Positions 25,293 through 62,150 are shown, numbered from the stretch's first letter. The stretch: DNA of 64,000 bases from Dictyostelium discoideum (GCA_000004695.1 CM000150.2:64001-128000); one strand, 5' to 3'. Translations and numbers: made by a program. Notes: generated by a model from the letters alone, not told the origin.

Positions 25293-26640
25293 ACAGCTGA
25301 GCTGTTAATGAAGTCATGGGAACCTTCCACTCTCAAAGTATATAGCTCCAGTTATACAAGATTCCGCAATTTCTGTACTTTGAACTCTTTGAATCCAGCA
25401 AACATTACCTTAGTTGTTTTCATGGATTATCTTACACATCTGTTCAAACACAAACCTCCGTTTGCCTTCTCAACAATTAACGGTCATCGCTCTATGTTGA
25501 ATCAGTTGTTACTCCTTAGGAATCAAACTGATATTGCTAATGATCCATTCATCACAAGAATTATGACTGGCATTCACAAGTTGCGTCCTTCATCTGCAAA
25601 GTATAAAGAGATATGGGATGCAAATCAAGTATTCAAGCACTTATCTACTATCAAAGTCATCCCCAAGTACACATACACTGCGCTATTAAACAAGACACTT
25701 GTACTCTGTAAAATGTTTGGTTTAGCAAGATCATCAGACTTGGTGAAGTGGTCGTTCAAAGGTCTCATTATTACTACTGACTCAATCAAAGGTCCAGTTA
25801 TTAATGCTAAAGAACAAAGAAGTGGTGTTGTTTCAATCTTAGAATTAACATCTTTAGATGATACAAACTCTCAAGTATGCCCTGTTCGCCACCTTGCAAC
25901 ATACCTTAGAGCCTCTAAAGGAAGAAGAAAGCCCCATTCGGGTGACTCTGTCTTTATTAAGAATGAGGGCTCCAAGTTAATGATATTAACTCAATTGTAT
26001 TATCAACACTCTCAAAGTCAGGTATTGATATTGTCAAGTTCAAATCTCACTCTACCCGTTCCGCTATGGCTTCTCTGCTGTTGTCAAATAACTTTCCGTT
26101 CCACGTTGTCAAGAAGTTGGTTCGTTGGAAATCAAACGATACTGTAGATACCTTCTACGATAAAAGAATCATTGGTGAAAAATCTGGTGGTTTCTTAAAT
26201 ACTGTCGTCCAAATTTCATAATATATATATATATATAATAATATAAATTAAAAATTTAATTTATTAAATTATATTTTATATTAAATATATATATATATAT
26301 TAGTCCCATCCCACTCTCCCTTAGTCGGAATTCCATAAATCAAATTGTTTTAGTTTTTAGTGCCACTATTTATACGTTTTTATTTTCTTAAAAATTTCGC
26401 AAAACTCAAAAAAATAAGTGTTTTCGACCCTTCACAACTTTGTGCATTGTGTCGGTTCGGAATTTTTATGTTTTTCGACCTTGCGCAATGATCGCGTCAT
26501 TGTGCCGGTTCGAAATTTTTACTTTTCTTTCGAAAATTTTTTTATTCTTCGAATGTTCTAGAACATTCTAAAAAATTATCTTAAATATTTGGGAAATTCA
26601 AATAAATAAATGTTATTCATAATATATATATATGATAATA
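25293..26640 (+). mobile_element. DIRS-1 fragment E comprising the ORF3 C-terminal part, with an internal deletion, plus the right ITR.
   Basis: It begins mid-ORF3 (MKSWEPSTLKVY…). A 57-bp ORF2 snippet follows at 26641-26697. Confidence 0.75.
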
Positions 26641-26697
26641 TAAATGCCGTTCGGGTTATCGACAGCTCCTCGTATCTTTACAATGCTGTTACAAAGA

Positions 26698-29786: not shown

Positions 29787-32603
29787 ATTAATCTGGTAAC
29801 ATACATCGCCATCTGAAAAGTATTTACTTTGACAAACTTTCTGAAGACTTTCGTATTCCAATATGTATTGAAATCATTTTCGCTTTTTCAGTCTGCCCGA
29901 AAATGAAAAAAAATTAAAAAAAATCATTTTTTACATAAAAATGTAAAAATTATGTAAAAAAGTTTTTAATTTTTTGATTTATTATTTTTTGAAGCCGAGA
30001 TTTTATCGTGGCATTTGTAAATTATAAGGTAATTGGTATCATCAATTTGAATTGGTAAAACATTATTTAGAATATTATCATATGTAATATAATTTAATTC
30101 ATTTGAAAGAAAATGGTATTTGTTAAATTGGTCACCAACATATTTGTCAAATAATTTAATAATATTGCATGTTTTATTATGTTATCATCCATTTCAATCA
30201 TTGATATTGAATTGATAATACCTGACCATCTACCTGAAAGTTCATTATCTGATGCAACTTCAACTGCATCACCAACATTGTATATTTCTTTATTATTTTT
30301 AATTGATGAGTGATTATTTATATTTTTATAATTTTGAAATAATGAATCTAATTTAATTTTTATGTTATCTAAATTATCTGGATTTTTTATTTTGTTACCA
30401 ATAATTAAAGCTGTACTTTCAATTTCAATACTTTTTAATTTATCTACTGATTTAAAAAATTTCACCATGTTTAATTTGGTAACCCTTTCATATTGTTCGT
30501 CCCTATTATTTGTATTATTATTTAAATAATTTTTAATTCTTGAGAATTGTGCTTCAAAAGTTTCAGCTGAAGTGTATTTTGGTGCACCCCAATTTTTTAT
30601 ATAAATTGGATAATGTAACAACAAGTGGAAATTCATTATTTCTGTTACTTTAAACATCTTTGCGCGACACCTAATAAAATATGTAAAATGTCTGGTTGTG
30701 TTTTTAAATAATTAATGGACAAGGGTTCGACCCACCCTCTGTCCACACCTTTGATACCAATATCTTTTGCTTTTTTTCCCATACTTTTTTTAATTCTATA
30801 TCAGCATTTAGTTCAGCATAATTTGGTTTGGTGGAGTGAAAATTTGTAATATCTTCTTGTTTTCTTAATGTACCTGATTTGCAAATAAATAAACCATATC
30901 TTGGTTTGTCACATGTGTGACATGCATATTCATTTGGATTATGTCCATTAAGTTTACACGATGCTCTAAATTCTGGAATATCCATTGTCAGTCCAAACGG
31001 TACAACATCTATTTGCTCATTTTCAATAATTAAATTAAAGCCATTACCAATAAAAGATGAAAACAATGCCCTAATTGTTTGATGGAAATTAAGTAACCAA
31101 TCATTTGGTACTACAAATAATAATAATTTATTATTTTTAAATTAATTTCCAATATAATTTTCTGTATCCAGCATTATAGTATAATCTTTCTTGTTTTGAC
31201 ACTGCATACTATCAGTGAATATTCTAAGTAAAACAATTTTATTTTTATTTTTATTTTTTAAATCTTTAAATTGTTGACCACTTTTATAATTTGTATAAAT
31301 TCCAGTTTCAAAATCTGTATCAAAATCTATTCTTTCAAAAAATTGCTTTTTATTTAATAAAGTTTCTAATACTTTTTTAATTTCAAAATAAAAAATTGAG
31401 TGATCATAATTTTTATTTATAAATGTTTCTCCTTTTATTTGAAAATCTTCCATAAATAATTTATCAATATATTGAGGTGTGTATCTTATTTGATTTAAAT
31501 TAGTTTTATTTTTGTCAATAAAACTTTTAAATTTTTCAAGAAGCTTTAAACTTATTGAGTTTTCAATTCCCAACATTAAAAATTCAATTTCAGTTCCATT
31601 TAATTTTTTTTTTGATTTTTCATTATCTAAATTATTATTAAGATTATTATTTATTGGTTCGTTTTGAGCATTTTCATTTTCATTATTTTCATTATTTTCA
31701 TTATTAATGTTTGCTTCATTTTCATCTATTCTAATTTCATTGTTTTCATCTTCACTATGTACCAACCCAATTATATCATGATTTTCTTCATTATCAATTG
31801 TTTGATTATTTTCATTATTTTCATTATTTTCTTGATAAAAAATTTCATCTTGGTTTTGGTTACATAAATGTTTACATGGGTCATCTGGATCATTTGTTGG
31901 ATATTTTATTTTTTCACCAGTAATATCCACTAATTTTTTATAAAAGCTATCTCTTTTTTGATTATTTGTAATAATTTTATTTTGTTCATTTTTACATTTT
32001 TTGGTGTTGAAATGTCCATTTACATCATAAAATTGTTTATAAGAACGGTAATATGCAAGACAAAATGGACATATATTTTTATGCATAATATAATGAATAA
32101 TAATATTTTTAAAATTCTTTAATTTTTCTCTGCAATTAATGCATGACATGTTATTTAAATTCATTTTGTTTGCTGGCTGGAAATTAAAAATAATATTTTT
32201 TTTTTTTTTTTCCTCGAGTTTTTACGTTTTTTTTTTTTTTTTTTTTTCATTTTATTCAAATTTTAGCATTTTAGCAAGTAGATATATGATTTAGTACTTA
32301 GAATTTTATATTTAGAGGGATATACCCCATTTTCAAAAAATGACCGGGAACCTATGACCCTGTCTATACCTTTTTCTTTTTAAAATATTAAAAAAAAAAA
32401 CTATAAAATCTGCCCAATTTATTGTAAAACTACACTAATGCAATAATATACATGTGCACTCGTTAATTGTTTATTAATTATAAAAAATAAAAAATAAAAA
32501 ATCTTTTTTTATATGTATGTTTATACTTATAATATAAATATGAAAAACAAATAATTAAATTTTTTTTTTTTTTTTTTTGATATTTTTCGCTTTTTGAAAT
32601 GAA
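28523..32603 (-). mobile_element. Beta DNA transposon, inverted near-full-length copy. It includes the right-end subterminal repeats (28523-28900).
   Basis: It is the reverse complement of 4489-8799. The large ORF is in pieces at 32164..31142, 31066..30704 and 30657..30094. Gene 2 retains its middle and last exons but lacks exon 1. The terminal sequence at about 32580-32603 is degenerate. Confidence 0.65.
31142..32164 (-). pseudogene. Beta large-ORF N-terminal portion. The N-terminus (MNLNNMSCINCREKLKNFKNIII…) is intact and the downstream part is frameshifted.
   Basis: Supplied ORF, homologous to 4914-5940. Confidence 0.6.
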
Positions 32604-32829
32604 AAGTAAAATTTAAAATAACATAATATAAAACCCAAGGCAATTGAAACACTTATTTATTATTAATTAATAAAAATAATAATAATAGAATTCAATTGCC
32701 ACTGAAACAAATAAATAAAGAATTAAAATTACTTTGGTTATCTTTTTAGTTTTTTTTTTTTTTTAATTTTCATAATTTTTTTTTTTTTCTTTTATTTTCT
32801 TATTTTTTTTTTTTTTTTAATAAATTTGA

Positions 32830-33135
32830 AATAAATAGTGTAAAAATTGATTTGAAATGTATTTAAAATGCATTTAAAATGTATTTTAAAAAATATAATT
32901 AATAAAAGCTTAAAAAAGGATTAATAAGTAATTTTAAATTACATTAAAAATAACTTTTTTAAATTTATTATAAAGTGATTAAAACATTATTTAAAAACCG
33001 CTTTATAATAAATTTAAAAGGTCATTTTTAATGTAATTTTAAATGACCTTAAAAATATCTTTAAAATTACCTTTTTAAAAAGCAAATTTTAAGCCAATTT
33101 AAAGTTGATTTAATGGTGTAATTTTCATCGCTGTG
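32830..33135 (+). mobile_element. MITE/beta-type right-end fragment with TTTAAAGG repeats and a terminus …TCATCGCTGTG at 33135.
   Basis: It has the same terminus as 8799. Confidence 0.55.
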
Positions 33136-34615
33136 TGGAAAGTTTACTTCCTGTTCTTCTGAAAACGGTTGTTGGTACCGTTGGCAGATTTGGTATTGTT
33201 GCTACCTGATGCAACATTACTTGGTGATCCATTGAAGTTGTTAGATCGGCCATTACTCCCACTACTGGATTTATTATCGCTACTGTTTCCTGTAGTGTTA
33301 TTACCACTTGGGTTAACTAATTTCTTGACATTGGGCTTGGAATGATAATTCAATTTTAACAATGATTGTTTAGCTTCGTTGTTCTTTCTGATTGACTTGG
33401 CTAGCTTTCTTACACGTTCAGTTTCAGTTTCATCAAAAATCTTTGGTGTATCCTTGATCTTAATTGGTAAGAGTACTTCAGAACCATAGATTTCTTTAGC
33501 GATGTTGTTACGAAGGACACGACTAAGCGATGCTTGAGCATTAACAACTAAGACGATTGCTCTCTGAGTTAAGTAACTAATAAGTTCTACATCGACATTA
33601 GAGCTATCAGATGATAAGATACTTGACATGAGAAGCAAAGGTTTCAAGCTATCGTTGATTCGCTTTTCAACAATCAACAAGTCAGTATCATTGTTCTTGA
33701 CGTTGGGTGATACAGTAATACCTTCAGGTGTACCGAATGGAGCGAAATTCACTTGGAAGTTAGATGGAAAGTTGAATACTTTATTCAATTCGGATATCTC
33801 ATCTTTCTTGAGGATTCATTCTTCTTCGACGACATTGTTACTTGATTCATCTTCACTTTGTTCATTCTCAGTGTCAGAGTCATCATGAGAAGGTTGGCTA
33901 CGTGAATTGGTATTAGATGAGAACATAGGTTCTTTCATGAATCTTGTTAAGGCTAAGGAAAGGTTGTTGATTTGATCCTCCATTGATTTCATTCTTAAAT
34001 CAAAGGATTCAGCGCTATTAGAGGTAGAGGTACTACCACTAGAGGCTTCATTATTATTAACAGTGGTAGACATATTTTATTGTTGATATCTAAAATTATA
34101 ATATGAGAAAAATAATAATATTAAAAATTAATAAAGAGAAATAATTATTTGTATAAAATTTGTGTGTGTGTGTATCTTAAATATATATAGGAGGAATTCC
34201 CAAATAAAATAAATCAAATTGTTTTAGTTTTTTGTGCCACTATTTATACGTTTTTATTTTCTTAAAAATTTCTCAAAACTCAAAAAAATAAGTGTTTTCG
34301 ACCCTTCACAACTTTGTGCATTGTGTCGGTTCGGAATTTTTATGTTTTTCGACCTTGCGCAATGATCGCGTCATTGTGCCGGTTCGAAATTTTTACTTTT
34401 CTTCGAAAATTTTTTATTCTTCGAATGTTCTAGAACATTCTAAAAAATTATCTTAAATATTTGGGATCGCGTCATTGTGCCGGTTCGAAATTTTTACTTT
34501 TCTTCGAAAATTTTTTATTCTTCGAATGTTCTAGAACATTCTAAAAAATTATCTTAAATATTTGGGAAATTAAAATAAATAAATGTTATTCATAATATAT
34601 ATATGATAATATAAA
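33136..34615 (-). mobile_element. DIRS-1 fragment F comprising ORF1, with an internal deletion of about 250 bp, and a left ITR that carries a 70-bp internal duplication.
   Basis: ORF pieces lie at 33144-33788 and 33816-34073. The duplicated ITR segments are 34370-34440 and 34480-34550. Confidence 0.75.
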
Positions 34616-34858
34616 CACCGTCCAATAGCTCGTTAATGGATATAATTCTTTCGTGGAACGTTTTAATGTGCGGGTGTTTCCGCGCCAATGACGGCTAGCT
34701 GGTGGTCGCTTTTTGTAATAACAAACAAGATTGAACAGAGATATCATCATTAGCGATCAACTTAAATAAATAGTCGACAGTCTGGGGAGTAGTGGGCATT
34801 TCTGGATCGATAAGGTAAGCGTGACGATTATTTTAAATGGTTTCGCCTAAGCCCTTAA

Positions 34859-35108
34859 CTACTGTAGCAAAGCACGTTTGAAATATAAATTAAATACCAC
34901 AACTAGAACGTTAGGGTTACGTATAGCATACTCAATTAACCAGCGAGTTTTCCCAGTTTGACGTGAGCCACTGAAGCCAATTGTAAACAACTCTCGTAAA
35001 TGACATGCCTTAGTACCGCCAAGATTATTAGCAGCGCTACGCATTATTAATCGCAATACTTTTCTCAAGTTCTTGAACTATCGCATCATAATCAATTGTA
35101 GACGTCAT
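34859..35108 (-). pseudogene. P-loop NTPase pseudogene with a Walker A motif GFSGSRQTGKT. The N-terminal ORF MTSTIDYDAIVQELEKSIAINNA stops and then frameshifts into the Walker A frame.
   Basis: The SRQxGKT signature resembles the Walker A motif of T4 gp17 large terminase (SRQLGKT). An SD sequence GAGGT lies 9 nt upstream of the ATG. The G5 paralog (61993-62139) is truncated by a TAA stop after the Walker A serine-arginine. Confidence 0.4.
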
Positions 35109-35120
35109 GATTTTTTTACC

Positions 35121-35288
35121 TCATTTATTTAAGTGGTTGTATGAACTCACAGGGTTATAGTCCTCATAAACAGGAAGTAGTAGACCAGGTGCATTAGGCA
35201 TTGTTATTAATACACGCTGCCCACGCACATAAGGTTGGTTGTTAACATATTTAAAATCAGTTGCCACATAGCCTTTTGGAATTTCCAT
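35121..35288 (-). CDS. Small ORF of 55 aa (MEIPKGYVATDFKYVNNQPYVRGQRVL…). Its stop codon overlaps the RBS of the next gene.
   Basis: An intact paralog lies in G5 (62151-62328) with an in-frame 3-codon indel. The gene layout is bacterial-style. Confidence 0.4.
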   Translation of the reverse strand: MEIPKGYVATDFKYVNNQPYVRGQRVLITMPNAPGLLLPVYEDYNPVSSYNHLNK

Positions 35289-35530
35289 GGTAAACTAATC
35301 CTCTTAATAGGGGACCGATGGCGGGTTGACCGTCAGACTTCTACAACACCCAACCACGTAATATCGGAGTGCTTCTGTCATTGTTATTTTATTTTTAGAT
35401 GCTACGCGGTTGATTGTGGTTTACTTACACCAAAGTGTAAGCGTCGGTTATTTGCTGGCATACTTTCAGCCACGTCCCAAGTCTCCAATTCACCGCCTTC
35501 CTGCTATTAATGGTGCCTAATGACGGACAT

Positions 35531-35568
35531 TCATCTCAAAATAAAACCAGGAGGGGTAAAACCCTCCT
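35531..35568 (-). terminator. Rho-independent terminator-like hairpin (AGGAGGG-GTAAAA-CCCTCCT) followed on the minus strand by TTTTATTTT.
   Basis: A 7-bp GC-rich stem plus a T-run, conserved in the G5 paralog at 62567-62601. Confidence 0.45.
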
Positions 35569-35889
35569 ATATACTAATCTTACGGACGTGGTGATATCGA
35601 ATACCACATTCTGTAATTTGGATCATGCTGGGTGTTATTTAATGTTTTGGCTATTGCTATAACCGACCGAGCTACTGTGTTTCCACAGAAATGACTCGAA
35701 CCATCGACCCACAGCGTGTATATAGTGAGCTGGTGGTTTAACCTCCCAAGGGCGGTGTTCGACTATTCGTCAAACGAAGACAAGCTTTTTAATTTAATTA
35801 AACTACCACACCATCTTCAATTTCGATTTTGGTAGAAGAGTTAGATTCAGTTAATCAATGTTGGCTTCGAAATCCAGAATCTCTTTTTC

Positions 35890-36078
35890 CTACTGCTTGA
35901 TTACTTTGCTGATCTCCAGCGGCTGATAACGTTCGATAACTGGATTAACGAACACAGCAATGGAAGCTTCATCGGCTTTCTTAGTACCGTTGAATGCTTC
36001 GGTGCGCGCGGTATTTTCACGCTGGTCAAAATTGGAGTTAGCGGTAACGTTGTGACGAGATATCGATTCGTAGTTCAC
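35890..36078 (-). CDS. Small ORF of 62 aa, probably GTG-initiated, of unknown function.
   Basis: Supplied ORF sitting in a compact gene array. Weak support. Confidence 0.25.
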   Translation of the reverse strand: MNYESISRHNVTANSNFDQRENTARTEAFNGTKKADEASIAVFVNPVIERYQPLEISKVIKQ

Positions 36079-36129
36079 TTTCTAAGCTTTGACAATATCG
36101 CGTTTCTCGCCTAATGCATTATGTGCATG

Positions 36130-36761
36130 TACAGCAAAGAAAAATCCACATTTAAAGCAAATTTAAAGCAAAGTTGATTTAAATTGGATTTAAATTGAAT
36201 TTAAAGCCGGGTTTAAAAAATTCATTTTCAAGGTAATTTTTAAGATAATTTTAAGATATTTAAAAATGCCTTTAAAATTTATTTTAAAATAATTTTAAAG
36301 AGGATTTAAAGTTGATTTAAAGTAGATTTAAAGTGAATTAAAATTTCCTTTAAATATAAATTTAAGGTTTTTAATAAAAAACATCTAATTTTAGATCAAA
36401 AAAATGGGGATAAAATATTCTATCATTTTTAAATTATCATCAAAGCAATCAAATGGTGTAATGGTTGATGAGACTACCCTTTGATTGATGAGACTACCCT
36501 TTTGGTAAATTTTCAAAAATTTCAAAAAAAAATTTTATAAAATTTATCCGTTAAATAACGGCTTCGAACTCCGGACCTCGCTTTTAAAGCCATTAAAAAG
36601 CTAATTCCTAAGGTAATTATAAAGGTAATTTATAAGGTGGTTTTAAAGTAACCTTAAAAATTACCTTTAAAATTACCTTAAAAATTGCTTTTGTACAGGA
36701 CTTTAAATTCGCTTTAAATTAAATTTAAATTTGCTTTAAAGGTGGTTTTTCTTTCACTGTG
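36130..36761 (-). mobile_element. MITE-like TIR element copy. It has the opposite orientation to 23858-24605 and is inserted between G2 and G3.
   Basis: Its termini are TACAGCAAAGAAAAATCC… and …GGTGGTTTTTCTTTCACTGTG. The interior is colinear with the 23858 copy and includes the tRNA-like core at about 36440-36500. Confidence 0.7.
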
Positions 36762-37026
36762 TAGTGTATTCTTTGCCAGCTACGGTAATAAGCGTACTAG
36801 CGTTGGACAATATCACTTTAGCAAGGATATCTTCACGCACACGAATGATATCTTGTAAACCATGGTAGTTTTCTTTGATCGCATCAGAAACCGCCCCAAC
36901 GGAATCATTGAAACCAGCTTCTTGGGCGAATTCATCAGTACCGCGAGTTAGTGAAATAAGCATCAGACCGTTGGACATGGATTTAACCGTGGCCAATGTA
37001 CGGGTAATTGAAATCTTAGTAGCCAT
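36754..37026 (-). CDS. Small ORF of 90 aa (MATKISITRTLATVKS…). Its last codons run into the inserted TIR element.
   Basis: TATAAAGG and AGGAAA lie upstream of the ATG. With the insertion removed, the frame continues three codons to a TAA stop. Confidence 0.35.
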   Translation of the reverse strand: MATKISITRTLATVKSMSNGLMLISLTRGTDEFAQEAGFNDSVGAVSDAIKENYHGLQDIIRVREDILAKVILSNASTLITVAGKEYTTQ

Positions 37027-37157
37027 TATATTTCCTTTTCCTTTATACGTTATAGACAGAGTGCCGAACCCTGTTTTAGAGAACGGTAGAGGCTTTCACT
37101 CTTAGGCTTTCATCGATCCCCGTTCGTGACCGTTTAGCGATTTCTTTAGATCTTAAT

Positions 37158-37247
37158 TGGTAGAGAATTAGAGATTCGAACTCTAGGAGCGGTTTCCCGC
37201 CCGACGGTTTTTAAGACCGTTACCTTGAACCACTCGGACAATTCTCC
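37158..37247 (-). tRNA. Type-II tRNA-like gene, probably tRNA-Leu (anticodon UAA), with a long variable arm and an encoded 3' CCA.
   Basis: Hand fold. The acceptor is GGAGAAT/ATTCTCT and the anticodon stem is ACGGT/ACCGT with loop CTTAAAA. The variable hairpin is GCGG-GAAA-CCGC. The T-arm is TAGAG-TTCGAAT-CTCTA, followed by A and CCA. The D-arm pairing is imperfect. Confidence 0.5.
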
Positions 37248-37406
37248 AATTGGGTGACACCCATTAGAATTTCACGTAGCTCTATAGCTATTACAGTCAA
37301 TACTAACACTTCACAAAAAGGCCTGGTTAACCCCTACTGATTGAACTTAGGTTGTCTTAGAGTTCCTACCAGGAAAACTGCAACTGATATCATTGTTTGG
37401 TGATTA

Positions 37407-37439
37407 CAAAAAAGACCAGTGTTATTGGCTGGTCTTTTT
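37407..37439. terminator. Bidirectional intrinsic-terminator-like hairpin AAAAAAGACCAG-TGTTATTGG-CTGGTCTTTTT. A mirrored copy lies in the palindrome arm at about 37905-37940.
   Basis: An 8-bp stem flanked by an A-run and a T-run. Confidence 0.45.
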
Positions 37440-37611
37440 GAGTTATACGATACCGTTCTCTTTACGATAACGGAATATTTTTGATCTATCGATATTAAGC
37501 ATTTCTGCAATTACTTAATCGCTATTACCTCACCAAGCAGTTCGATAATCATGGCAATATGTTCTGGGTTAAGTTGTGTCTTTTGGCTTTTACTTAATGC
37601 TGATCTACCAA

Positions 37612-37739
37612 CACAGCGAAGAAAAAACCACCTTTAAATTCGCTTTAAATTAAATTTAAATTTGCTTTAAAGTCCCGAATTAAAGCAATTTTAAAGGTAA
37701 TTTTAAAGCGAATTTAAAGGTGGTTTTTTCTTCGCTGTG
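37612..37739. mobile_element. Centre of the palindrome. It is MITE left end nt 1-98, then the reverse complement of nt 31-1, joined at a TTTAAAG microhomology.
   Basis: CACAGCGAAGAAAAAACCACCTTTAAATTCG lies at 37612 and its reverse complement ends at 37739. Confidence 0.7.
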
Positions 37740-38016
37740 TTGGTAGATCAGCATTAAGTAAAAGCCAAAAGACACAACTTAACCCAGAACATATTGCCAT
37801 GATTATCGAACTGCTTGGTGAGGTAATAGCGATTAAGTAATTGCAGAAATGCTTAATATCGATAGATCAAAAATATTCCGTTATCGTAAAGAGAACGGTA
37901 TCGTATAACTCAAAAAGACCAGCCAATAACACTGGTCTTTTTTGTAATCACCAAACAATGATATCAGTTGCAGTTTTCCTGGTAGGAACTCTAAGACAAC
38001 CTAAGTTCAATCAGTA

Positions 38017-38644
38017 AAACACTAAAAATTACCTTTAAAATTACCTTTAAAATTACCTTTTTAATCGCTTTAAAAGCGAGGTCCTGAGTTCGAAGCCGTT
38101 ATTTAACGGATAAATTTTTTAAAATTTTTTTTTTTAATTTTTCAAAAATTACCAAAAGGGATTCGATCCCCCGACCCTCTATCAAAGGGTAGTCTCATCA
38201 ACCATTACACCATTTGATTGCTTTGATGAAAATTTAAAAATGATAGAATATTTTATCCCCATTTTTTTGTTCTAAAATTAGATCTTTTTTATTAAAAACC
38301 TTAAATTTATGTTTAAAGGAAATTTAAATTCACTTTAAATCTACTTTAAATCTACTTTAAATCCTATTTAAAATTAATTTAAAATAAATTTTAAAGGTAT
38401 TTTTAAATATCATAAAAATTATCTTAAAAATTACCTTAAAAATCACCTTTAAAATCACCTTTAAAATCACCTTTATAAATTTATTTTAAAGCAAATTTTA
38501 AAGGCATTTTTAAATATCTTAAAAATTACCTTAAAAATTACCTTAAAAATGAATTTTTTAAACGCGGCTTTAAATTCAATTTAAATCCAATTTAAATCAA
38601 CTTTTCTTTAAATTTGCTTTAAAGGTGCATTTTTCTTTGCTGTG
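38017..38644 (+). mobile_element. Remainder (about nt 100 to the end) of the same MITE copy, with a right terminus …TTTCTTTGCTGTG at 38644.
   Basis: Colinear with 23955-24605. Once the inverted-duplication insert is removed, the whole MITE is flanked by an AA target duplication (…CTACCAA| and |AAGAGATCC). Confidence 0.65.
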
Positions 38645-38693
38645 AAGAGATCCAGTTCTACCATTCTGGCGATGCTTGCTTGCCGATCAGTCA

Positions 38694-38808
38694 TTAACGA
38701 ATCTTCTTCAGTAACTGAGTACGAAGAATTGGATTAGCATCTCGCTTGGCTTTATCGGCCGCTGCAGTGCGTTTTGTACAGTTACCAAAATCAAAAGATT
38801 TACATGGC
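38694..38808 (-). CDS. Small ORF of 38 aa (MPCKSFDFGNCTKRTAAADKAKRDANPILRTQLLKKIR). It has a perfect RBS (GGAGG 7 nt upstream), and its stop overlaps the next start (TAATGA).
   Basis: Read directly. The downstream overlapping gene MTDRQASIARMVELDL… is interrupted by the MITE. Confidence 0.4.
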
Positions 38809-38851
38809 ATGACATCCCTCCATTGACTTAAAAGAAAAATAAGGGGATAAC

Positions 38852-39052
38852 ATGTGTTCTGGTCAAGCCATACCCTTAATGAGGGTGTTAATCTTCGTCA
38901 TAATAATTTTGATCTTTTGGAGTACTTGCATGCAGAGAGGTTATGGGGACCATCCCTACACATTATATCCGGTACTGTGTAAAACTTTACATATCAATAG
39001 ATCAAAAATAAGAGGATGTAGTACATCCCCTCTTTCAATTAAGGCAACATGA
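38852..39052 (+). CDS. Small hydrophobic ORF of 66 aa with an RBS (AAGGGG 5 nt upstream of the ATG).
   Basis: Supplied ORF. A hydrophobic stretch (LMRVLIFVIIILIFW) suggests a membrane peptide. Confidence 0.3.
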   Translation: MCSGQAIPLMRVLIFVIIILIFWSTCMQRGYGDHPYTLYPVLCKTLHINRSKIRGCSTSPLSIKAT

Positions 39053-39330
39053 CCCTAGTCAAGTAGCGCATTGTGTCACGTAATAGGGATACACGCCCGC
39101 GATTAAGATCAACAATACCGTAGTTCAAATGAATAGAATCGTTATATATACCTTCTGCGTTAAGCCTGAAGTTCAAACGCGAACGGAGCGTAGTATGAAC
39201 CTGACCTTCACTTCTGAAAATGTGTACTCGTTATCTAACGCCACATCAAAGGCAGGCCAACCTGTTAATGCTGTTGATCTTATCCCAATTACGTGAAACA
39301 ATGCGCTACTTGGCTAAGGTCATGGTGGCC
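39048..39330. repeat. Pair of imperfect inverted repeats of about 60-75 bp (39048-39125 and 39255-39330). They flank a core of about 130-190 bp that carries a 33-codon ORF with a GGAG RBS.
   Basis: The left repeat reads CATGACCCTAGTCAAGTAGCGCATTGTGTCACGTAATAGGGATA…AGATCAACAATACC. The right repeat is its reverse complement with a 14-bp indel. Confidence 0.5.
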
Positions 39331-39385
39331 AATACAACTCCACCTGTAAACCTTTCACCAACCACTTGTCATTGACTAATAACTA

Positions 39386-39707
39386 GTCAGTTTCGTTGTT
39401 CTTGACGTTGGGTGATACAGTAATACCTTCAGGTGTACCGAATGGAGCGACATTCACTTGGAAGTTAGATGGAAAATTGAATATTTTATTCAATTCGGAT
39501 ATCTCATCTTTCTTGAGGATACATTCTTATTTGACGAGTAAACCTTGATTGTTTACCATATGTTTGTACTGACCAAGTAAGGTATCGGATAATTGATAAT
39601 CGGTTGGAACATCGACATTGTTACTTGATTCATCTTCACTTTGTTCATTCTCAGTGTCAGAGTCATTATGAGAAGGTTGGCTACGTGAATTGGTATTAGA
39701 TGAGAAT
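39386..39707 (-). mobile_element. DIRS-1 ORF1 fragment of about 320 bp.
   Basis: Matches the region 14030-14330. Confidence 0.75.
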
Positions 39708-40222
39708 TAATAATTTAATTTATTAAATTACATTTATATTAAATATATATAAATATATTATGAATAAAATTTATTTATATTATCATATATATATATATAT
39801 TATGAATAACATTTATTTATTTGAATTTCCCAAATATTTAAGATAATTTTTTAGAATGTTCTAGAACATTCGAAGAATAAAAAATTTTCGAAAGAAAAGT
39901 AAAAATTTCGAACCGGCACAATGACGCGATCATTGCGCAAGGTCGAAAAACTGAAAAATTCCGAACCGACACTATGCACAAAGTTGTGAAGGGTCGAAAA
40001 CTCTTATTTTTTTGAGTTTTGCTAAATTTTTAAGAAAATAAAAACGTATAAATAGTGGCACTAAAAACTAAAACAATTTGATTTATTTTATTTGGGAATT
40101 CCTCCTATATATATTTAAGATACACACACACACAAATTTTATACAAATAATTATTTCTCTTTATTAATTTTTAATATTATTATTTTTTCTCATATTATAA
40201 TTTTAGATATCAACAATAAAAT

Positions 40223-41230
40223 ATGTCTACCACTGTTAATAATAATGATGCCTCTAGTAGTAGTACCTCTGCCTCTAATAGCGCTGAATCCTTTGATTTA
40301 AGAATGAAATCAATGGAGGATCAAATCAACAACCTTTCCTTAGCCTTTACAAGATTCATGAAAGAACCTATGTTCTCTTCTAATACCAACTCACGTAGCC
40401 AACCTTCTCATGATAACTCTGACACCGAGAATGAACAAAGTGAAGATGAATCAAGTAACAATGTCGATGTTCCAACCGATTATCAATTATCCGATACCTT
40501 ACTTGGTCAGTACAAACATATGGTAAACAATAAAGGTTTACTCGTCGAAGAAGAATGTATCCTCAAGAAAGATGAGATATCCGAATTGAATAAAGTATTC
40601 AACTTTCCATCTAACTTCCAAGTGAATGTCGCTCCATTCGGTACACCTGAAGGTATTACTGTATCATCCAACGTCAAGAACAATGATACTGATTTGTTGA
40701 TTGTCGAAAAGCGAATCAACGATAGCTTGAAACCTTTGCTTCTCATGTCAAGTATGTTATCATCTGATAGCTCTAATGTCGATGTAGAACTTATTAGTTA
40801 CTTAACTCAGAGTGCAATCGTCTTAGCCGTTAACGCTCAAGCATCGCTTAGTCGTGTCCGTCGTAACAACATCGCTAAAGAAATCTATGGTTCTGAAGTA
40901 CTCTTACCAATTAAGATCAAGGATACACCAAAGATGTTTGATGAAACTGAAACTGAACGTGTAAGAAAGCTAGCCAAGTCAATCAGAAAGAACAACGAAG
41001 CAAAACAATCATTGTTAAAATTGAATTATCATTCCAAGCCCAATGTCAAGAAATCAGTTAACTCAAGTGGTAATAACACTACAGGAAACAGTAGTAATAG
41101 TAAATCCAGTAGTGGGAGTAATGGCCGATCTAACAACTTCAATGGATCACCAAGTAATGTTGCATCAGGTAGCAACAATACCAAGTCTGCCAACGGTACC
41201 AACAACCGTTTTCAGAAGAACAAGAAGTAA
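40223..41230 (+). CDS. DIRS-1 ORF1 (Gag-like).
   Basis: Supplied ORF of 335 aa. Confidence 0.8.
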   Translation: MSTTVNNNDASSSSTSASNSAESFDLRMKSMEDQINNLSLAFTRFMKEPMFSSNTNSRSQPSHDNSDTENEQSEDESSNNVDVPTDYQLSDTLLGQYKHMVNNKGLLVEEECILKKDEISELNKVFNFPSNFQVNVAPFGTPEGITVSSNVKNNDTDLLIVEKRINDSLKPLLLMSSMLSSDSSNVDVELISYLTQSAIVLAVNAQASLSRVRRNNIAKEIYGSEVLLPIKIKDTPKMFDETETERVRKLAKSIRKNNEAKQSLLKLNYHSKPNVKKSVNSSGNNTTGNSSNSKSSSGSNGRSNNFNGSPSNVASGSNNTKSANGTNNRFQKNKK

Positions 41231-44144
41231 ACTTACCAGTAGGTGGACGTCTGTTCCACCACAAACAAGTTTGGAAAGAATTGGGTCTTCCAAACTTTTG
41301 TCAAGAGGTCGTAAATGGATTAAAAGTCCATCTACTTCCAAACTTCAAGCCGATGCCAAACCCAATTCCGATTTCAATTCCAGAGGGTCCAAAATCAGAT
41401 TGCATCACAAAGGAAGTACAAGACTTGTTATTAGACGATGCCATCGAACAAGTACTTCCAAACCGTTATTCAAAGCGCGTTTTTTACTCCAACGTGTTTA
41501 CGGTTCCAAAACCTGGAACGAATCTACATCGTCCAGTTCTCGATTTAAAAAGGTTAAACACTTACATCAACAACCAATCATTCAAGATGGAAGGAATCAA
41601 GAATCTACCATCAATGGTCAAACAAGGTTATTACATGGTAAAACTCGATATCAAGAAAGCTTACCTCCACGTTTTAGTAGATCCGCAATACAGAGACTTA
41701 TTTCGCTTCGTGTGGAAAGGTTCGCACTACCGTTGGAAAACAATGCCGTTCGGGTTATCGACAGCTCCTCGTATCTTTACAATGTTGTTAAGACCTGTAC
41801 TTCGAATGTTGAGAGATATCAACGTATCCGTCATCGCATACTTGGACGATCTATTAATCGTCGGTTCAACAAAAGAAGAATGTTTATCCAACCTCAAAAA
41901 GACAATGGACTTACTTGTCAAACTAGGTTTCAAGTTAAATCTAGAAAAGAGTGTTCTCGAACCAACTCAATCAATTACATTTCTCGGATTACAAATCGAT
42001 TCGGTATCAATGAAGCTTCTTGTTCCCAAAGAAAAGAAGAAAAGTGTCATCAAGGAAATAAGAAACTTTTTAAAACTAGATTGTTGCTCCCCAAGAAAGC
42101 TTGCTGGTTTAAAAGGAAAGCTAATCGCACTGAAAGATGCAGTCATCCCTTTCAGACTTTACACTCGTCGAACAAACAAGTTTCACTCTCAGTGTCTGAC
42201 TCTAGCCAATGGAGATTGGGATCAATCATTCCCCATTCCTCAAGAGGTCAAGTCAGAGATTTCACATTGGTTAACAGTTCTAAACCAATGGAATGGAAAA
42301 GAAATCAGTCTGTTTCCAAGTTACGACTATGTTCTTACAACCGATGCCTCGGAATCAGGTGCAGGTGCCACACTCAAGAAAGGAAACAAGGTAATCAAAA
42401 CTTGGTCATTCCAGTGGTCAACAACTCAATCAAACATGTCGTCAAATCGTCGAGAAATGCTCGCGCTGCTAATGGCCTATCAAGCGCTATGTCAGAAACT
42501 GAACAACTGCAAGCTGAAGATCCAAACCGACAATACTACCACTCTCTCATACATCAATCGCCAGGGTGGTCAGATACAAGATCTCTCAGTTCTGTTCGAA
42601 CAACTTTGGAAACAATGCCTCAAGAAGAAAGTGAACTTGATTGGAGAGCATATTCCAGGATTCTTCAATGTAAAAGCCGACCACCTCAGTCGTCTTTCAG
42701 AGATGAATCACAAATCATCGACCAGAGTAATCAAGAGTTACATCTGGCAACTGAAGAAGGAAGTGTTCAATCGCATCCAACTTCAATTCGGTCAAATACA
42801 GATGGATCTGTTCGCATCTCACCTCAACCATCAAACGAACAACTACTCAACAATAAGAATGAATGCACTCAACCTCGATTGGAGTCAATGGAAGCAATGT
42901 CTGGCCTTTCCACCACCCATTCTTTTGCCTTCTATCCTGGAGAAGATGAACTCATCCAGTTCGAAGAAGGTTTCTATAATACTGATCTTCCCAATCTGGA
43001 GATCAGCAACTTGGTATCCGATGATTCAAGCACAAGTTCCTCGTCATCATCGTCACATGTTTCCTCAAGTACTGGGAACATTCCAAGAAGTATTGACCAA
43101 ACAATCAGTAGAGTCGATACCAATCCAGATTCAACAACGTTGGAAGCTGGGGATTATTCAACTTTCCAATCTCATGTAATGTCCTTCGCTCGTACAACAA
43201 ATACAAAAACAGCTGAGCTGTTAATGAAGTCATGGGAACCTTCAACTCTCAAAGTATATAGCTCCAGTTATACAAGATTCCGCAATTTCTGTACTTTGAA
43301 CTCTTTGAATCCAGCAAACATTACCTTAGTTGTTTTCATGGATTATCTTACACATCTATTCAAACACAAACCTCCGTTAGCTTTCTCAACTATTAACGGT
43401 CATCGATCTATGTTGAATCAGTTGTTACTCCTTAGGAATCAAACTGATATTGTTAATGATCCATTCATTACAAGAATTATGACTGGTATTCACAAGTTGC
43501 GTCCTTCATCTGCAAAGTATAAAGAGATATGGGATGCAAATCAAGTATTCAAGCACTTATCTACTATCAAAGTCATCCCCAAGTACACATACACTGCGCT
43601 ATTAAACAAGACACTTGTACTCTGTAAAATGTTTGGTTTAGCAAGATCATCAGACTTGGTGAAGTGGTCGTTCAAAGGTCTCATTATTACTCCTGACTCA
43701 ATCAAAGGTCCCGTTATTAATGCTAAAGAACAAAGAAGTGGTATTGTTTCAATCTTAGAATTAACATCGTTAGATGATACTAACTCTCAAGTGTGCCCTG
43801 TTCGCCACCTTGCAACATACCTTAGAGCATCTAAAGGAAGAAGAAAGCCCCATTCGGGTGACTCTGTCTTTATTAAGAATGAAGGTGAACCGCTCCAAGT
43901 TAATGATATTAATTCAATTGTACTATCAACACTCTCAAAGTCAGGTATTGATATTGTCAAGTTCAAATCTCACTCTACCCGTTCCGCTATGGCTTCTCTG
44001 CTGTTGTCCAATAACGTTCCGTTCCACGTTGTCAAAAAGATGGGTCGTTGGAAATCAAACGATACTGTAGATACCTTCTACGATAAAAGAATCATTGGTG
44101 AAAAATCTGGTGGTTTCTTAAATACTGTCGTCCAAATTTCATAA
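41043..44144 (+). CDS. DIRS-1 ORF3 overlapping frame with the tyrosine recombinase at the C-terminal end.
   Basis: 1033-aa open frame with the conserved C-terminal recombinase region. Confidence 0.7.
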   Translation: MSRNQLTQVVITLQETVVIVNPVVGVMADLTTSMDHQVMLHQVATIPSLPTVPTTVFRRTRSKLTSRWTSVPPQTSLERIGSSKLLSRGRKWIKSPSTSKLQADAKPNSDFNSRGSKIRLHHKGSTRLVIRRCHRTSTSKPLFKARFLLQRVYGSKTWNESTSSSSRFKKVKHLHQQPIIQDGRNQESTINGQTRLLHGKTRYQESLPPRFSRSAIQRLISLRVERFALPLENNAVRVIDSSSYLYNVVKTCTSNVERYQRIRHRILGRSINRRFNKRRMFIQPQKDNGLTCQTRFQVKSRKECSRTNSINYISRITNRFGINEASCSQRKEEKCHQGNKKLFKTRLLLPKKACWFKRKANRTERCSHPFQTLHSSNKQVSLSVSDSSQWRLGSIIPHSSRGQVRDFTLVNSSKPMEWKRNQSVSKLRLCSYNRCLGIRCRCHTQERKQGNQNLVIPVVNNSIKHVVKSSRNARAANGLSSAMSETEQLQAEDPNRQYYHSLIHQSPGWSDTRSLSSVRTTLETMPQEESELDWRAYSRILQCKSRPPQSSFRDESQIIDQSNQELHLATEEGSVQSHPTSIRSNTDGSVRISPQPSNEQLLNNKNECTQPRLESMEAMSGLSTTHSFAFYPGEDELIQFEEGFYNTDLPNLEISNLVSDDSSTSSSSSSSHVSSSTGNIPRSIDQTISRVDTNPDSTTLEAGDYSTFQSHVMSFARTTNTKTAELLMKSWEPSTLKVYSSSYTRFRNFCTLNSLNPANITLVVFMDYLTHLFKHKPPLAFSTINGHRSMLNQLLLLRNQTDIVNDPFITRIMTGIHKLRPSSAKYKEIWDANQVFKHLSTIKVIPKYTYTALLNKTLVLCKMFGLARSSDLVKWSFKGLIITPDSIKGPVINAKEQRSGIVSILELTSLDDTNSQVCPVRHLATYLRASKGRRKPHSGDSVFIKNEGEPLQVNDINSIVLSTLSKSGIDIVKFKSHSTRSAMASLLLSNNVPFHVVKKMGRWKSNDTVDTFYDKRIIGEKSGGFLNTVVQIS
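41281..43179 (+). CDS. DIRS-1 ORF2 RT/RNase H.
   Basis: The YLDD motif is present in a 632-aa intact frame. Confidence 0.85.
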   Translation: MGLPNFCQEVVNGLKVHLLPNFKPMPNPIPISIPEGPKSDCITKEVQDLLLDDAIEQVLPNRYSKRVFYSNVFTVPKPGTNLHRPVLDLKRLNTYINNQSFKMEGIKNLPSMVKQGYYMVKLDIKKAYLHVLVDPQYRDLFRFVWKGSHYRWKTMPFGLSTAPRIFTMLLRPVLRMLRDINVSVIAYLDDLLIVGSTKEECLSNLKKTMDLLVKLGFKLNLEKSVLEPTQSITFLGLQIDSVSMKLLVPKEKKKSVIKEIRNFLKLDCCSPRKLAGLKGKLIALKDAVIPFRLYTRRTNKFHSQCLTLANGDWDQSFPIPQEVKSEISHWLTVLNQWNGKEISLFPSYDYVLTTDASESGAGATLKKGNKVIKTWSFQWSTTQSNMSSNRREMLALLMAYQALCQKLNNCKLKIQTDNTTTLSYINRQGGQIQDLSVLFEQLWKQCLKKKVNLIGEHIPGFFNVKADHLSRLSEMNHKSSTRVIKSYIWQLKKEVFNRIQLQFGQIQMDLFASHLNHQTNNYSTIRMNALNLDWSQWKQCLAFPPPILLPSILEKMNSSSSKKVSIILIFPIWRSATWYPMIQAQVPRHHRHMFPQVLGTFQEVLTKQSVESIPIQIQQRWKLGIIQLSNLM

Positions 44145-44598
44145 TATATATATATATATGATAATATAAATTAAAAATTTAATTTATTAAATTATATTTT
44201 ATATTAAATATATATATATATATTAGTCCCATCCCACCCGCCCTTAGTCGGAATTCCATAAATCAAATTGTTTTAGTTTTTAGTGCCACTATTTATACGT
44301 TTTTATTTTCTTAAAAATTTAGCAAAACTCAAAAAAATAAGAGTTTTCGACCCTTCACAACTTTGTGCATAGTGTCGGTTCGGAATTTTTCAGTTTTTCG
44401 ACCTTGCGCAATGATCGCGTCATTGTGCCGGTTCGAAATTTTTACTTTTCTTTCGAAAATTTTTTATTCTTCGAATGTTCTAGAACATTCTAAAAAATTA
44501 TCTTAAATATTTGGGAAATTCAAATAAATAAATGTTATTCATAATATATATATATATATTTAATATAAAATATAATTTAATAAATTAAATTTTTAATT

Positions 44599-45265
44599 TA
44601 TTTGAACGACAGTATCAATGAAAATACCACCAGATTTTTCACCAATGATTCTTTTATCGTAGAAAGTATCTACAGTATCGTTTGATTTCCAGCGACCCAT
44701 CTTCTTGACAACATGGAACAGAACGTTATTGAACAACAGCAGAGAAGCCATAGCGGAACGGGTAGAGTGAGATTTGAACTTTCCAGTGTCAATACCTGAG
44801 CTTGAGAGTGTTGATAATACAATTGAACTAATATCATTAACTTGGAGCGGTTCACCCTCATTCTTAATAAAGACAGAGTCACCCGAATGGGGCTTTCTTC
44901 TTCCTTTAGAGGCTCTAAGGTATGTTGCAAGGTGGCGAACAGGACATACTTGAGAGTTAGTATCATCTAACGATGTTAATTATAAGATTGAAACAACACC
45001 ACTTCTTTGTTCTTTAGCATTGATAACTAGACCTTTGATTGAGTCAGTACTAATAATGAGACCTTTGAATGACCACTTCACCAAGTCTGATGATCTTGAT
45101 AAACCAAACATTTTACAGAGTACAAGTGTCTTGTTTAATAGCGCAGTGTATATGTACTTGGGGATAACTTTGATAGTAGACAAGTGCTTGGATACTTGAT
45201 TTGCACCCCATATCTCTTTATACTTTGCAGATGAAGGGAGCAACTTGTGAATACCAGTCATAATT
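44599..45265 (-). mobile_element. DIRS-1 fragment G comprising only the ORF3 C-terminal region, with no ITR.
   Basis: It begins at the ORF3 stop codon and abuts DIRS-D. Confidence 0.7.
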
Positions 45266-46335
45266 ATATATCGTGGTATTTGTAAATTATAAGGTAATTG
45301 GTATCATCAATTTGAATTGGTATAACTATATTTAGAATACTATCATACGTAATATAATTTATTTGAAAGAAAATGGTATTGGTCACCAACATATTTGTCA
45401 AAATAATTTAATAATATTGAATGTTTTACTAGTTATCATCCATTTCAATCATTGATATTGAATTGATAATACCTGACCATCTACCTGAAAGTTCATTATA
45501 TGATGCAACTTCAACTGCATCACCAACATTGTATATTTCTTTATTATTTTTAATTGATGAGTGAAAAGTTAAATTTTTATAATTTTGAAATAATGAATCT
45601 AATTTAATTTTTATGTTATCTAAATTATCTGGATTTTTTATTTTATAATTAATGCTGTACTTTCAGGTTCAATACTTTTTAATTTAAAAAATTTCACCAT
45701 GTTTAATTTGGTAACCCTTTCATATTGTTCATCCCTATTATTTGTATTATTATTTAAATAATTTTTAATTCTTGATAATTGTGCTTCAAAAGTTTCAGCT
45801 TAAGTGTATTTTGGTGCACCCCAATTTTTTATATAGATTGGATAATATAACAACAAGTGGAAATTCGTTATTTCTGTTTCAGTAATTAAATTTACTTTTG
45901 CATTAAACGATTCAATTAATACTTGAAGTGAAATTAAATCATTTTCATCAAAGGAGTCACTATATAATTTAAAACATATAGTTACTAATTGTTCCATTAT
46001 TAAAAATCATCATTTGATATTTGATTTTTAATTGATATTAAAAGGTAATATAATATTGATCTATTCTCTCTTCCTTTCCTTGTTTTATTTGCAAATAGTG
46101 AAATTGATGGTTTTGGTTTATTATCTATTATTTTTGCATTTTTTAAATTATTTAAAAAATTTTCAATTTTTTTATTTTTATCAAAAATGTAATTTAAACA
46201 CCTTTGTGCGACACCTAATAAAATATGTCTGGTTGTGTTTTTAAATAATTAATGGACAAGGGTTCGACACCCTCTGTCCACACCTTTGATACCAATATCT
46301 TTTGCTTTTTTTTCCCATACTTTTTTTAATTCTAT
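45266..46335 (-). mobile_element. Beta transposon fragment, colinear with about 6300-7385 in inverse orientation.
   Basis: Matched by eye. ORF pieces lie at 45800-45997. Confidence 0.6.
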
Positions 46336-49148: not shown

Positions 49149-49462
49149 AATTCAGCATAATTTGGTTTGATGGAGTGAAAATTTGTAATGTCTTCTTGTT
49201 TTCTTAATGTACCTGATTTGCAAATATATAAACCATCTATTGGATTGTCACATGTGTGACATGCATATTCATTTGAATTATGTCCATTAAGTTTACACGA
49301 TGCTCTAAATTCTGGAATATCCATTGTTAGTCCAAACGGTACAACATCTATTTGTTCATTTTCAATAATTAAATTAAACCCATTACCAATAAAAGATGAA
49401 AACAATGCCTAATGGTTTAATGAAAATTAAGTAACCAATCATATGGTACTACAAATAATACA
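49149..49462 (-). mobile_element. Beta transposon fragment.
   Basis: The ORF at 49142-49405 matches …FSSFIGNGFNLIIENEQ…. Confidence 0.6.
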
Positions 49463-49830
49463 CAGGGGCGAAAAAAAATACTTAAAAGCATCTTTAAAGT
49501 AGGAACGTAAATAGTACTATTATAAAGTATACTTAATAAGTATATTTATTAAGTATACTTATTAAGTGTACTTATTAAGTATATTTATTAAGTATATTTA
49601 TTAAGTATACTTATTAAGTATATTTATTAAGTATATTTATTAAATATATTTATTAAATATATTTATTAAGTATATTTATTAAGTATATTTAATAAGTATA
49701 TTTATTAAGTATATTTATTAAGTATATTTATTAAGCATAATTATTAAGTATAATTATAAAATATAATTATTAATTAAAATTATTAAGTATAATTAATAAG
49801 GGTAATTATAAAGTTCACTTAATAAGAATA
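49463..49830 (-). mobile_element. Alpha-type right end in inverted orientation, comprising the terminus CACAGGGGCGAAAAAAAA and a TAAGTATACTTA array.
   Basis: It is the reverse complement of 3700-3837. Confidence 0.6.
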
Positions 49831-50190
49831 CTTAAAAAGTTAAAAATAACATTTTATAATAATAATTTAAAATAAATTTAAAAAAAAAAAAAAAAAAAAC
49901 TAAAAAAAAAAAAAAGAATTAATTAAAAAGTAAAGTATTTGAAATCAGAAATTTTTTTTATTTAATTGTGAAAATTCTAAGGGTATTAATATGTTGACTT
50001 TAACAAGGGTCATACAACATTTATAATTGACTAATTTGAAAAGCAGAACTTTATTTCCATTATTATTTGTACCAAAAGCATTTACTTTACAGGTTCAAAT
50101 AAAAGAAGGGACAACCTAAAATATAATTGTTTTTTAAATTATATTAATCTCTTTATTTTATATTATTATTTTTTTTTTTCTTTGAACCAG

Positions 50191-53612: not shown

Positions 53613-53613
53613 G

Positions 53614-57342: not shown

Positions 57343-57432
57343 TGGGTAATCATTATCCTCAAGGTGATGATATTGTGAAATTTTATAATTTTTATTTAAA
57401 ATCTTTGACCTGGACTCATCACCTTCATCGAG

Positions 57433-57852: not shown

Positions 57853-57879
57853 AGCAAGGATATTATTATCTAAAATTGA

Positions 57880-61924: not shown

Positions 61925-62150
61925 ATAAATTAAATTTACTAGAACGTTAGGGTTACGGATAGCATACTCAAATAACCAGCGAGTTTTCCCAGTTTAACGT
62001 GAGCCACTCAAGCCAATTGTAAACAACTCTCGTAACTGACATGCCTTAGTACCGCCAAGGTTATTAGCAGCGCTACGCTCATTATTAATCGCAATACTTT
62101 TCTCAATCGCATCATAATCGATGGTTGTCGTAGACGTCATGATTTTTTAC

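Follow-up and report, generated by a model that had tools for sequence, protein, structure and literature searches.

The window, that is, the whole stretch of DNA analysed here, covers 64,000 nt of chromosome 1 of Dictyostelium discoideum AX4 (GCA_000004695.1 CM000150.2:64001-128000). Its minus strand carries two short and broken copies, G2 and G5, of one P-loop gene, each copy beginning with an SD-preceded ORF (Table 1). In G2, the ATG is found at 35108-35106, with a GAGG about 9 nt upstream (...AAATGAGGTAAAAAAATCATG). The first frame, MTSTIDYDAIVQELEKSIAINNA, opens with MTSTIDYDA… and is closed by a TAG at 35039-35037; the +1 frame (...RSAANNLGGTKACHLRELFTIGFSGSRQTGKTRWLIEYAIRNPNVLVVVFNLYFKRALLQ, ending with a stop at 34861-34859) carries the sequence GFSGSRQTGKT. 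When the two copies were aligned with each other, the lesion of G2 was located as a 2-bp deletion between 35043 and 35042, where G2 has AAT--GCG and G5 has AATGAGCG. G5 reads MTSTTTIDYDAIEKSIAINNERSAANNLGGTKACQLRELFTIGLSGSR, TAA (61996-61994), TGKTRWLFEYAIRNPNVLV and is in frame up to this TAA, which lies inside the RQ-G-K motif (GLSGSR-stop-TGKT) at a site where G2 has CAA (Gln). The initial annotation had described ORFs that run from MTSTIDYDA… into GFSGSRQTGKT in G2 or GLSGSR-stop in G5, and had considered both copies disrupted. This description was accurate, and the alignment of the copies confirmed the frameshift and TAG of G2 as well as the CAA>TAA change of G5. The start motif was observed once in the window, the expected number being 0. 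The 3' part of the G2 copy is an exact ORF match to the gene model DDB_G0267284 (61 aa, D. discoideum AX4).

Table 1. Features of the phage-derived block, its flank and the second gene copy (positions counted from the first nucleotide of the window)
Feature	Position	Strand	Basis or remark
DIRS-1 terminal-repeat sequence, many copies in window	33830..34621	.	flanks phage block
41% GC DNA from truncated gene to DIRS-1 ITR, absent from G5	34622..34858	-	
P-loop pseudogene, G2 copy	34859..35108	-	family HMM, phrog_2586, phage tblastn
Small SD-preceded ORF, 55 aa (MEIPKGYVATDF... / MEIPKGYVATDFKYVNNQPYVRGQRV...)	35121..35288	-	both copies; G5 equivalent ~62153-62330
Terminator-like hairpin (35548-35569), then leader	35443..35569	-	DNA comparison with SA002
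Intergenic DNA, tRNA-like fragments (T-arm, D-arm motifs)	35655..35848	-	phage DNA conservation
Upstream phage pseudogene, homologue of AH06 gp217 / Desertfox gp202	35810..37026	-	tblastx/tblastn, phrog_1491
AT-rich MITE-like Dictyostelium repeat, 630 bp	36131..36760	.	terminal inverted repeats
tRNA-Leu(taa), long variable arm	37158..37247	-	Rfam 50.7 bits
Palindrome, 326-nt arms, 98% complementary, 30-nt spacer	37335..38016	.	
41% GC single-copy DNA (about 730 bp): gene 3' end, 38-aa ORF, terminator-like hairpin 39010-39032	38648..39380	-	
P-loop pseudogene, G5 copy	61937..62140	-	paralogue alignment; gene model DDB_G0267318 (48 aa), exact ORF match

A blastn self-comparison of the window found a single paralogue of the G2 region: the segments 34885-35641 and 61925-62674 are 88.4% identical, or 92.9% identical over 718 ungapped columns, with 51 substitutions in those columns. 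In addition to the two inactivating lesions, in-frame indels of +6 and -12 separate G5 from G2. The G5 copy is truncated at about 61925-61936, beside a DIRS-1 ITR, where about 250 bp present in G2 have been deleted; short repeats flank this deletion and suggest, in our own reading, microhomology. When the substitutions were sorted by codon position, counts of 6/6/8 were obtained for the P-loop gene and 3/6/2 for the small ORF. Although these numbers are small, an even distribution over codon positions is the pattern predicted for neutral decay.

In a six-frame search of the window with the HMM of the gene family, the G2 frame was recovered with an E-value of 1.3e-17. The Dictyostelium sequence aligned with the family from residue 1 to about 86, so that positions 1-86 of 165 are present in G2. 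Past model position 86, the HMM found nothing in any frame of the window, and neither tblastn nor an unfiltered HMM search in six frames detected the missing C-terminal half in 34622-34858. Interrupted by a frameshift or a stop and reduced to positions 1-86 of 165, the Dictyostelium copy is thus a pseudogene of its family and not a working member of it. Both ORFs are relics of a single gene, neutral and without function, and represent roughly the first 86 of about 165-170 codons.

The family in question is phrog_2586, which the reconstructed ORF matched with an E-value of 2.2e-11, residues 5-77 aligning with profile positions 5-77 of 166. By tblastn, 31 jumbo phages infecting Erwinia, Serratia, Klebsiella, Salmonella and Pectobacterium were matched. 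The best match was gp219 of Erwinia phage AH06 (172 aa), with 45% identity over 86 aa (E 2e-17); the homologue in Salmonella phage SA002, gene 2060 (ACSA002_2060, 194 aa), showed 43% identity. The 86-aa reconstructed query contained one surplus threonine (MTSTTTT... for MTSTTT...), which left the matches unaffected. A profile search of 1.84 billion representative proteins returned 83 relatives, all of 150-209 aa, and the Dictyostelium ORF was recovered among them at E 1.5e-7. Pfam gave no matches to the reconstructed ORF or to the small upstream ORF, and IMG/VR contained no close relatives of the ORF. Since no close phage relative was found (45% identity at best, and none in IMG/VR), the donor lineage can be given only approximately.

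Homology to the phrog_2586 proteins (AH06 gp219, SA002 2060) extends over all 86 surviving residues of the Dictyostelium copy and includes the N-terminal TTT-x-DY/NW-x-AIVQELE helix and the near-invariant T..G...(P/S)RQxG motif. The most conserved residues in AH06-type numbering, T46 (74 of 77 relatives), R53 (75), Q54 (76) and G56 (75), are all kept in G2, which reads T-I-G-F-S-G-S-R-Q-T-G-K-T. The serine before RQ in the Dictyostelium copy differs from the proline usual in the family. G2 also keeps GKT, and the Walker B region is missing from the Dictyostelium copy. In the family itself, the Walker A lysine is kept in 42 of 77 relatives and replaced by A, S, R, G or T in the other 35; 63 of 77 relatives have the Walker B Asp, and the residue after it is D/E in 47 of 77. 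The frequent loss of the lysine beside near-invariant R-Q and G residues suggests that the P-loop of phrog_2586 proteins may serve something other than canonical ATP hydrolysis.

The P-loop pseudogene belongs to a block of about 4.8 kb (34622-39380) of decayed, chimallivirus-like jumbo-phage DNA that has received a MITE-like insertion and is partly duplicated. The nearest relatives of the block are Agricanvirus/SPN3US-type phages. Phages of this type encode a tubulin/FtsZ-like protein together with a multisubunit RNA polymerase, both of them hallmarks of chimalliviruses; in AH06, the tubulin/FtsZ-like protein and a gene for the RNA polymerase beta' subunit are present. Upstream of the P-loop gene lies a second phage pseudogene, which is 42-46% identical to phage genes and matches phrog_1491 ('tail fiber protein') with an E-value of 7e-16. 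Because this upstream neighbour corresponds to AH06 gp217, the phage gene order is kept. Like phrog_2586 genes in phages, the P-loop gene is found downstream of a phrog_1491 gene in a tRNA-bearing region, and in SA002 a tRNA adjoins the homologue directly. The gp217 homologue has internal stops and a frameshift, with stops also in its C-terminal half, and is split at residue ~95/99 by the MITE-like element. The terminal inverted repeats of the element are 37 nt long (36131-36167 and 36724-36760), TACA adjoins it on either side, and its relatives occur in a non-phage context at 23858-24606 and elsewhere in the window. The annotation of a second assembly, GCA_054883475.1, contains a 111-aa model, ACTFIT_001916, in which the element has apparently been treated as an intron of the gp217 homologue.

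The DNA between the two pseudogenes is also related to phage DNA. A leader of about 100 nt (35443-35542) matches, with 76% identity, the DNA that immediately precedes the homologous gene in SA002, and the intergenic stretch 35655-35848 is 69% identical to DNA of Erwinia phage Desertfox and 89% identical, over 45 nt, to that of AH06. The phrog_2586 loci of phages and the Dictyostelium block have in common both the upstream neighbour gene and conserved intergenic DNA. Non-coding DNA between the phage genes is conserved at 69-89%, even though the proteins are only about 40-45% identical; its counterparts in the phage loci are found at 19848-19946 (L003), 4001-4208 (L001) and 19063-19107 (L002). 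A search of 34500-36300 against Rfam at E-values up to 1 gave nothing. This conserved DNA could represent a structured RNA, or an element derived from tRNA, that has so far not been described in jumbo phages. The small ORF sits between the leader and the P-loop gene; in SA002 it is missing from this place, where the gap between leader and gene is about 55 bp, and no Pfam or PHROG homologue of it was found.

Further upstream, the intact-looking tRNA-Leu(taa) gene is 76-86% identical to phage tRNA genes annotated as tRNA-Ser, and it was the only sequence in the whole window to pass the Rfam gathering score. Two tRNA genes have been reported for the chromosome 1 centromere (PMC2665215), and the present gene is probably one of them. 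A search of 36990-39420 against phages for distant DNA similarity found nothing besides the tRNA. Each arm of the palindrome contains the 3' end of an HNH-endonuclease-type gene and a terminator, and a small MITE-like unit occupies the centre. The single-copy DNA at 38648-39380 stops at a DIRS-1 fragment (39381). No homologue was found for this DNA or for 34622-34858, and a PHROG scan of the GC-richer fragments 38697-39313 and 62684-63117 gave no matches. Single-copy stretches of 41-43% GC, each having no detectable homologue, adjoin both copies of the pseudogene (62675-63113 and 34622-34858); these may be further phage DNA that is no longer recognisable.

Dictyostelium eats bacteria, and the DNA could in principle have come from a bacterial chromosome or plasmid, for example that of a food bacterium or a symbiont, and not from a phage particle or an infected cell. 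Bacterial proteins may indeed be among the 83 relatives, as the library that was searched is unannotated. However, all annotated matches are lytic-type jumbo phages, phage gene order is preserved across the two neighbouring genes, the leader and the tRNA-like DNA between the genes, and a phage-type tRNA gene and an HNH homing-endonuclease fragment are found alongside. We thus consider a bacterial donor unlikely and prefer a phage source for the block.

For the intact phage protein, an AlphaFold2 model was built from an alignment of 77 sequences, a 6-sequence alignment having given an unusable pLDDT of 37. The model predicted a single alpha/beta domain of 172 aa (pLDDT 95.7, pTM 0.89). Foldseek searches against the PDB were led by DEAD-box, XPB and RadD proteins, and the closest folds, as judged from this predicted structure, are the RecA1 domains of SF2 helicases. 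In BFVD, the model best matched small proteins, as yet uncharacterised, from phiKZ-like Pseudomonas phages (201phi2-1, PhiPA3, Noxifer, Phabio and EL). At the sequence level, a PDB search with a shallow family profile gave only a marginal match to the RecA superfamily (SSO2452, E 0.015), and one with the deep profile gave none. SF2 helicases (DEAD-box, DEAH/RHA, XPB, T4 UvsW) have two tandem RecA-like domains with motifs I-VI, whereas the phrog_2586 protein is a single 172-aa domain in which the second RecA domain is missing. Its sequence identity to SF2 RecA1 domains is 10-17%, and no helicase family in Pfam was matched by the relatives. Our best guess, held with low confidence, is that the intact protein may be a nucleotide-binding or regulatory single RecA-like domain.

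According to the initial annotation, the SRQ-x-GKT signature matched the ATPase Walker A motif of T4-type large terminases, and the disrupted ORFs were consistent with a decaying phage packaging gene. A P-loop of the form RQ-x-GK(T/S) is typical of large terminases, that of T4 gp17 being SRQLGKT. The likeness is real at the level of the motif, as hhalign aligned the loop with PRQTGKS of the AH06 terminase. One GenBank record (H32) labels the homologue as 'terminase large subunit', and the ATPase domain of P74-26 TerL appeared in the Foldseek list at rank 33 (E 9e-3). Its TM score of 0.40, compared with 0.40-0.48 for helicase domains, reflects the generic ASCE fold and does not discriminate between the two. 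None of the terminase families in Pfam or PHROGs was matched by the ORF, which matched phrog_2586. When 6 or 77 relatives were used, the only terminase match was a weak one to GpA_ATPase in one of the 77 (E 0.009); the recurrent weak Pfam match was AAA_14, found in 17 of 77 relatives.

Several observations speak against a packaging motor. TerL consists of an N-terminal ATPase and a C-terminal RNase H-like nuclease and is typically longer than 400 aa, whereas all 83 relatives have 150-209 aa and lack a nuclease domain. The terminase of AH06 is a different protein of 731 aa (AH06_193), encoded about 16 kb away from gp219; the genomes that carry the family also carry a genuine terminase. The hhalign comparison of the 77-sequence profile with this terminase covered just 10 columns (PRQSGKT/PRQTGKS), with a probability of 15.6%. 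Furthermore, the Walker lysine is dispensable in 45% of phrog_2586 members, being present in just 42 of 77 relatives. What the family has in common with TerL of the T4 gp17 and AH06 types is thus the RQ-x-GK(T/S) P-loop and the broad ASCE/RecA-like fold class. The sequence and structure tests show that the motif resemblance is genuine but confined to the P-loop. The ASCE fold being common to both, a very distant common origin with terminase ATPases may exist. It is very unlikely that the ORFs derive from a large terminase, and we reject this identity on the basis of the size of 150-209 aa, the one-domain structure, the separate AH06 terminase and the 10-column similarity. The part of the initial annotation that holds is that of a decaying gene of phage origin, as indicated by phrog_2586 and synteny. 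The phrog_2586 family is a separate stand-alone RecA-like domain and not a packaging motor. The terminase label should not be propagated. In its intact form, the family is widespread in jumbo phages and uncharacterised; its one RecA-like domain carries an RQxG(K) loop that resembles that of terminases, often without the lysine.

The initial annotation had also taken the pseudogenes as support for a phage origin of the whole island. Here the results were different: the island is a DIRS-1/Skipper retrotransposon cluster of chromosome 1, and phage DNA is present in patches only. The GC content of the window is 21-40%. The DIRS-1 architecture is evident from large overlapping ORFs, one frame encoding a tyrosine recombinase and another RT/RNase H/Dam methyltransferase. 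The intervals 53291-58718, 9957-26691 and 39381-52861 hold one single-copy gypsy-type element and several nested or truncated DIRS-1 copies; the gypsy-type element (RT, RNase H, integrase) is probably Skipper. Such elements account for the 'phage integrase' and Dam signals, both of which belong to DIRS-1.

DIRS-1 sequence bounds the block 34622-39380 on both sides, and the same DIRS-1 junction partner is found beside G5 (61314-61934). The DIRS-1 repeats adjoining the two copies (33993-34615 and 61314-61934) are 90.7% identical. The phage-derived patches of the cluster are 34622-39380, 61936-~62674 and an HNH fragment within 9186-9643 only. This last HNH-endonuclease fragment, at 9545-9643, matched phrog_14913 with an E-value of 3.8e-11 and is surrounded by single-copy GC-richer DNA (8977-9234 and 9353-9951). 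The stretch 9186-9563, which continues the HNH fragment and represents a C-terminal part, looks by eye like a paralogue of the 37440-37620 gene end. An ankyrin-repeat-like fragment is present at 8954-9223, within a GC-richer single-copy patch (8954-9951).

The chromosome 1 centromere was rebuilt manually from shotgun reads (PMC2665215), and contaminating phage DNA might have been mis-assembled into this repetitive region. The window was compared with an independent D. discoideum assembly (GCA_054883475.1, contig JBTAPE010000022.1). The contig was colinear with 29888-43310 of the window at 99.9% identity, an interval that takes in the phage block with its MITE-like insertion as well as the flanking DIRS-1 sequence. 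The palindrome at 37335-38016 was not reproduced: the second assembly jumps from 38015 to 37721 and is thus without 37722-38014, one of the arms. The missing arm represents either a strain difference or an artefact of the reference assembly. As the second assembly possibly comes from the same laboratory lineage, the comparison bears on the question of an artefact and not on the age of the insert or its presence throughout the species. The colinearity over the whole block and its flanks nevertheless shows that the block is not an artefact of the 2005 assembly. Contamination is also contradicted by the divergence of 7-12% between the two copies, the Dictyostelium MITE-like repeat inside a phage gene, the DIRS-1 junctions beside both copies and the multiple inactivating lesions. 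Given the MITE-like element in the phage gene, the divergence of the duplicate and the agreement with the second assembly, we reject contamination or mis-assembly, which appears extremely improbable.

That DDB_G0267284 and DDB_G0267318 are functional short Dictyostelium genes domesticated from the phage is hardly credible: both ORFs are annotated as gene models, and in the second annotation the MITE is treated as an intron of the upstream gene, but the two copies are inactivated at different places, no more than half of the domain remains, the substitutions show no third-codon-position bias, and the expression signals (SD, intrinsic terminator) are bacterial. Both gene models are probably spurious. 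Since the first ~86 of ~165 family positions are all that is left, and the substitutions are even over codon positions, the relic is non-functional; it has no function in the amoeba today.

We conclude that the two ORFs are very probably the remnants of a dead jumbo-phage P-loop gene, which came with phage DNA integrated into a DIRS-1/Skipper cluster and was then duplicated and decayed. A piece of jumbo phage of at least ~4.8 kb would have integrated into the cluster at the centromeric end of chromosome 1, presumably following the uptake of DNA from phage-infected bacterial prey. The incoming piece would have carried the phrog_1491 gene, the tRNA-like intergenic DNA, the terminator, the small ORF and the P-loop gene, with the tRNA gene and the end of the HNH-endonuclease gene upstream. 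A segment including the adjacent DIRS-1 repeat would subsequently have been duplicated, giving G2 and G5. Because the two copies share both the phage segment and the adjoining DIRS-1 repeat, we infer a single integration followed by segmental duplication. Both copies have decayed through the frameshift, the nonsense mutation and the indels; the MITE-like element was inserted into the upstream gene, and truncations arose next to DIRS-1 ends.

With somewhat less assurance, we also favour a broader reading, in which a multi-kb piece of a nucleus-forming-type (chimallivirus-like) jumbo phage, with its intact-looking tRNA-Leu(UAA), was captured by the centromeric DIRS-1 cluster, duplicated and invaded by transposons. 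If this is true, the block would be a direct fossil of 'you are what you eat' DNA uptake, in which material from a lytic phage reached the centromere of a eukaryote, and would provide an origin for part of the unassigned non-transposon fraction of the chromosome 1 centromere. The published description of this centromere region does not mention phage (PMC2665215). Nor did full-text literature searches, whose coverage did not extend to subscription journals, turn up any account of phage DNA in Dictyostelium centromeres; the context may thus be new. As a gene, the relic is ordinary, being a dead fragment; it is moderately interesting as a centromeric jumbo-phage fossil. Jumbo-phage DNA in a eukaryotic centromere region is a rare, datable trace of phage-to-eukaryote transfer and shows that foreign DNA can collect in DIRS-1 clusters.

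The intact members of phrog_2586 reside in phages, whereas the copies described here reside in a eukaryotic chromosome and, unlike those members, keep only the N-terminal half of the protein and are interrupted by a frameshift (G2) or a nonsense change (G5). Fossils of foreign DNA in eukaryotic nuclear genomes include organelle-derived inserts and those of Wolbachia or phage WO in arthropods. In these systems, as in the present locus, promoter-less DNA of prokaryotic type decays neutrally and then acquires host transposons and duplications. In contrast to them, the apparent donor here is a lytic jumbo phage of Enterobacterales-like hosts, and the site is the DIRS-1 centromeric cluster of a bacterivorous amoeba.
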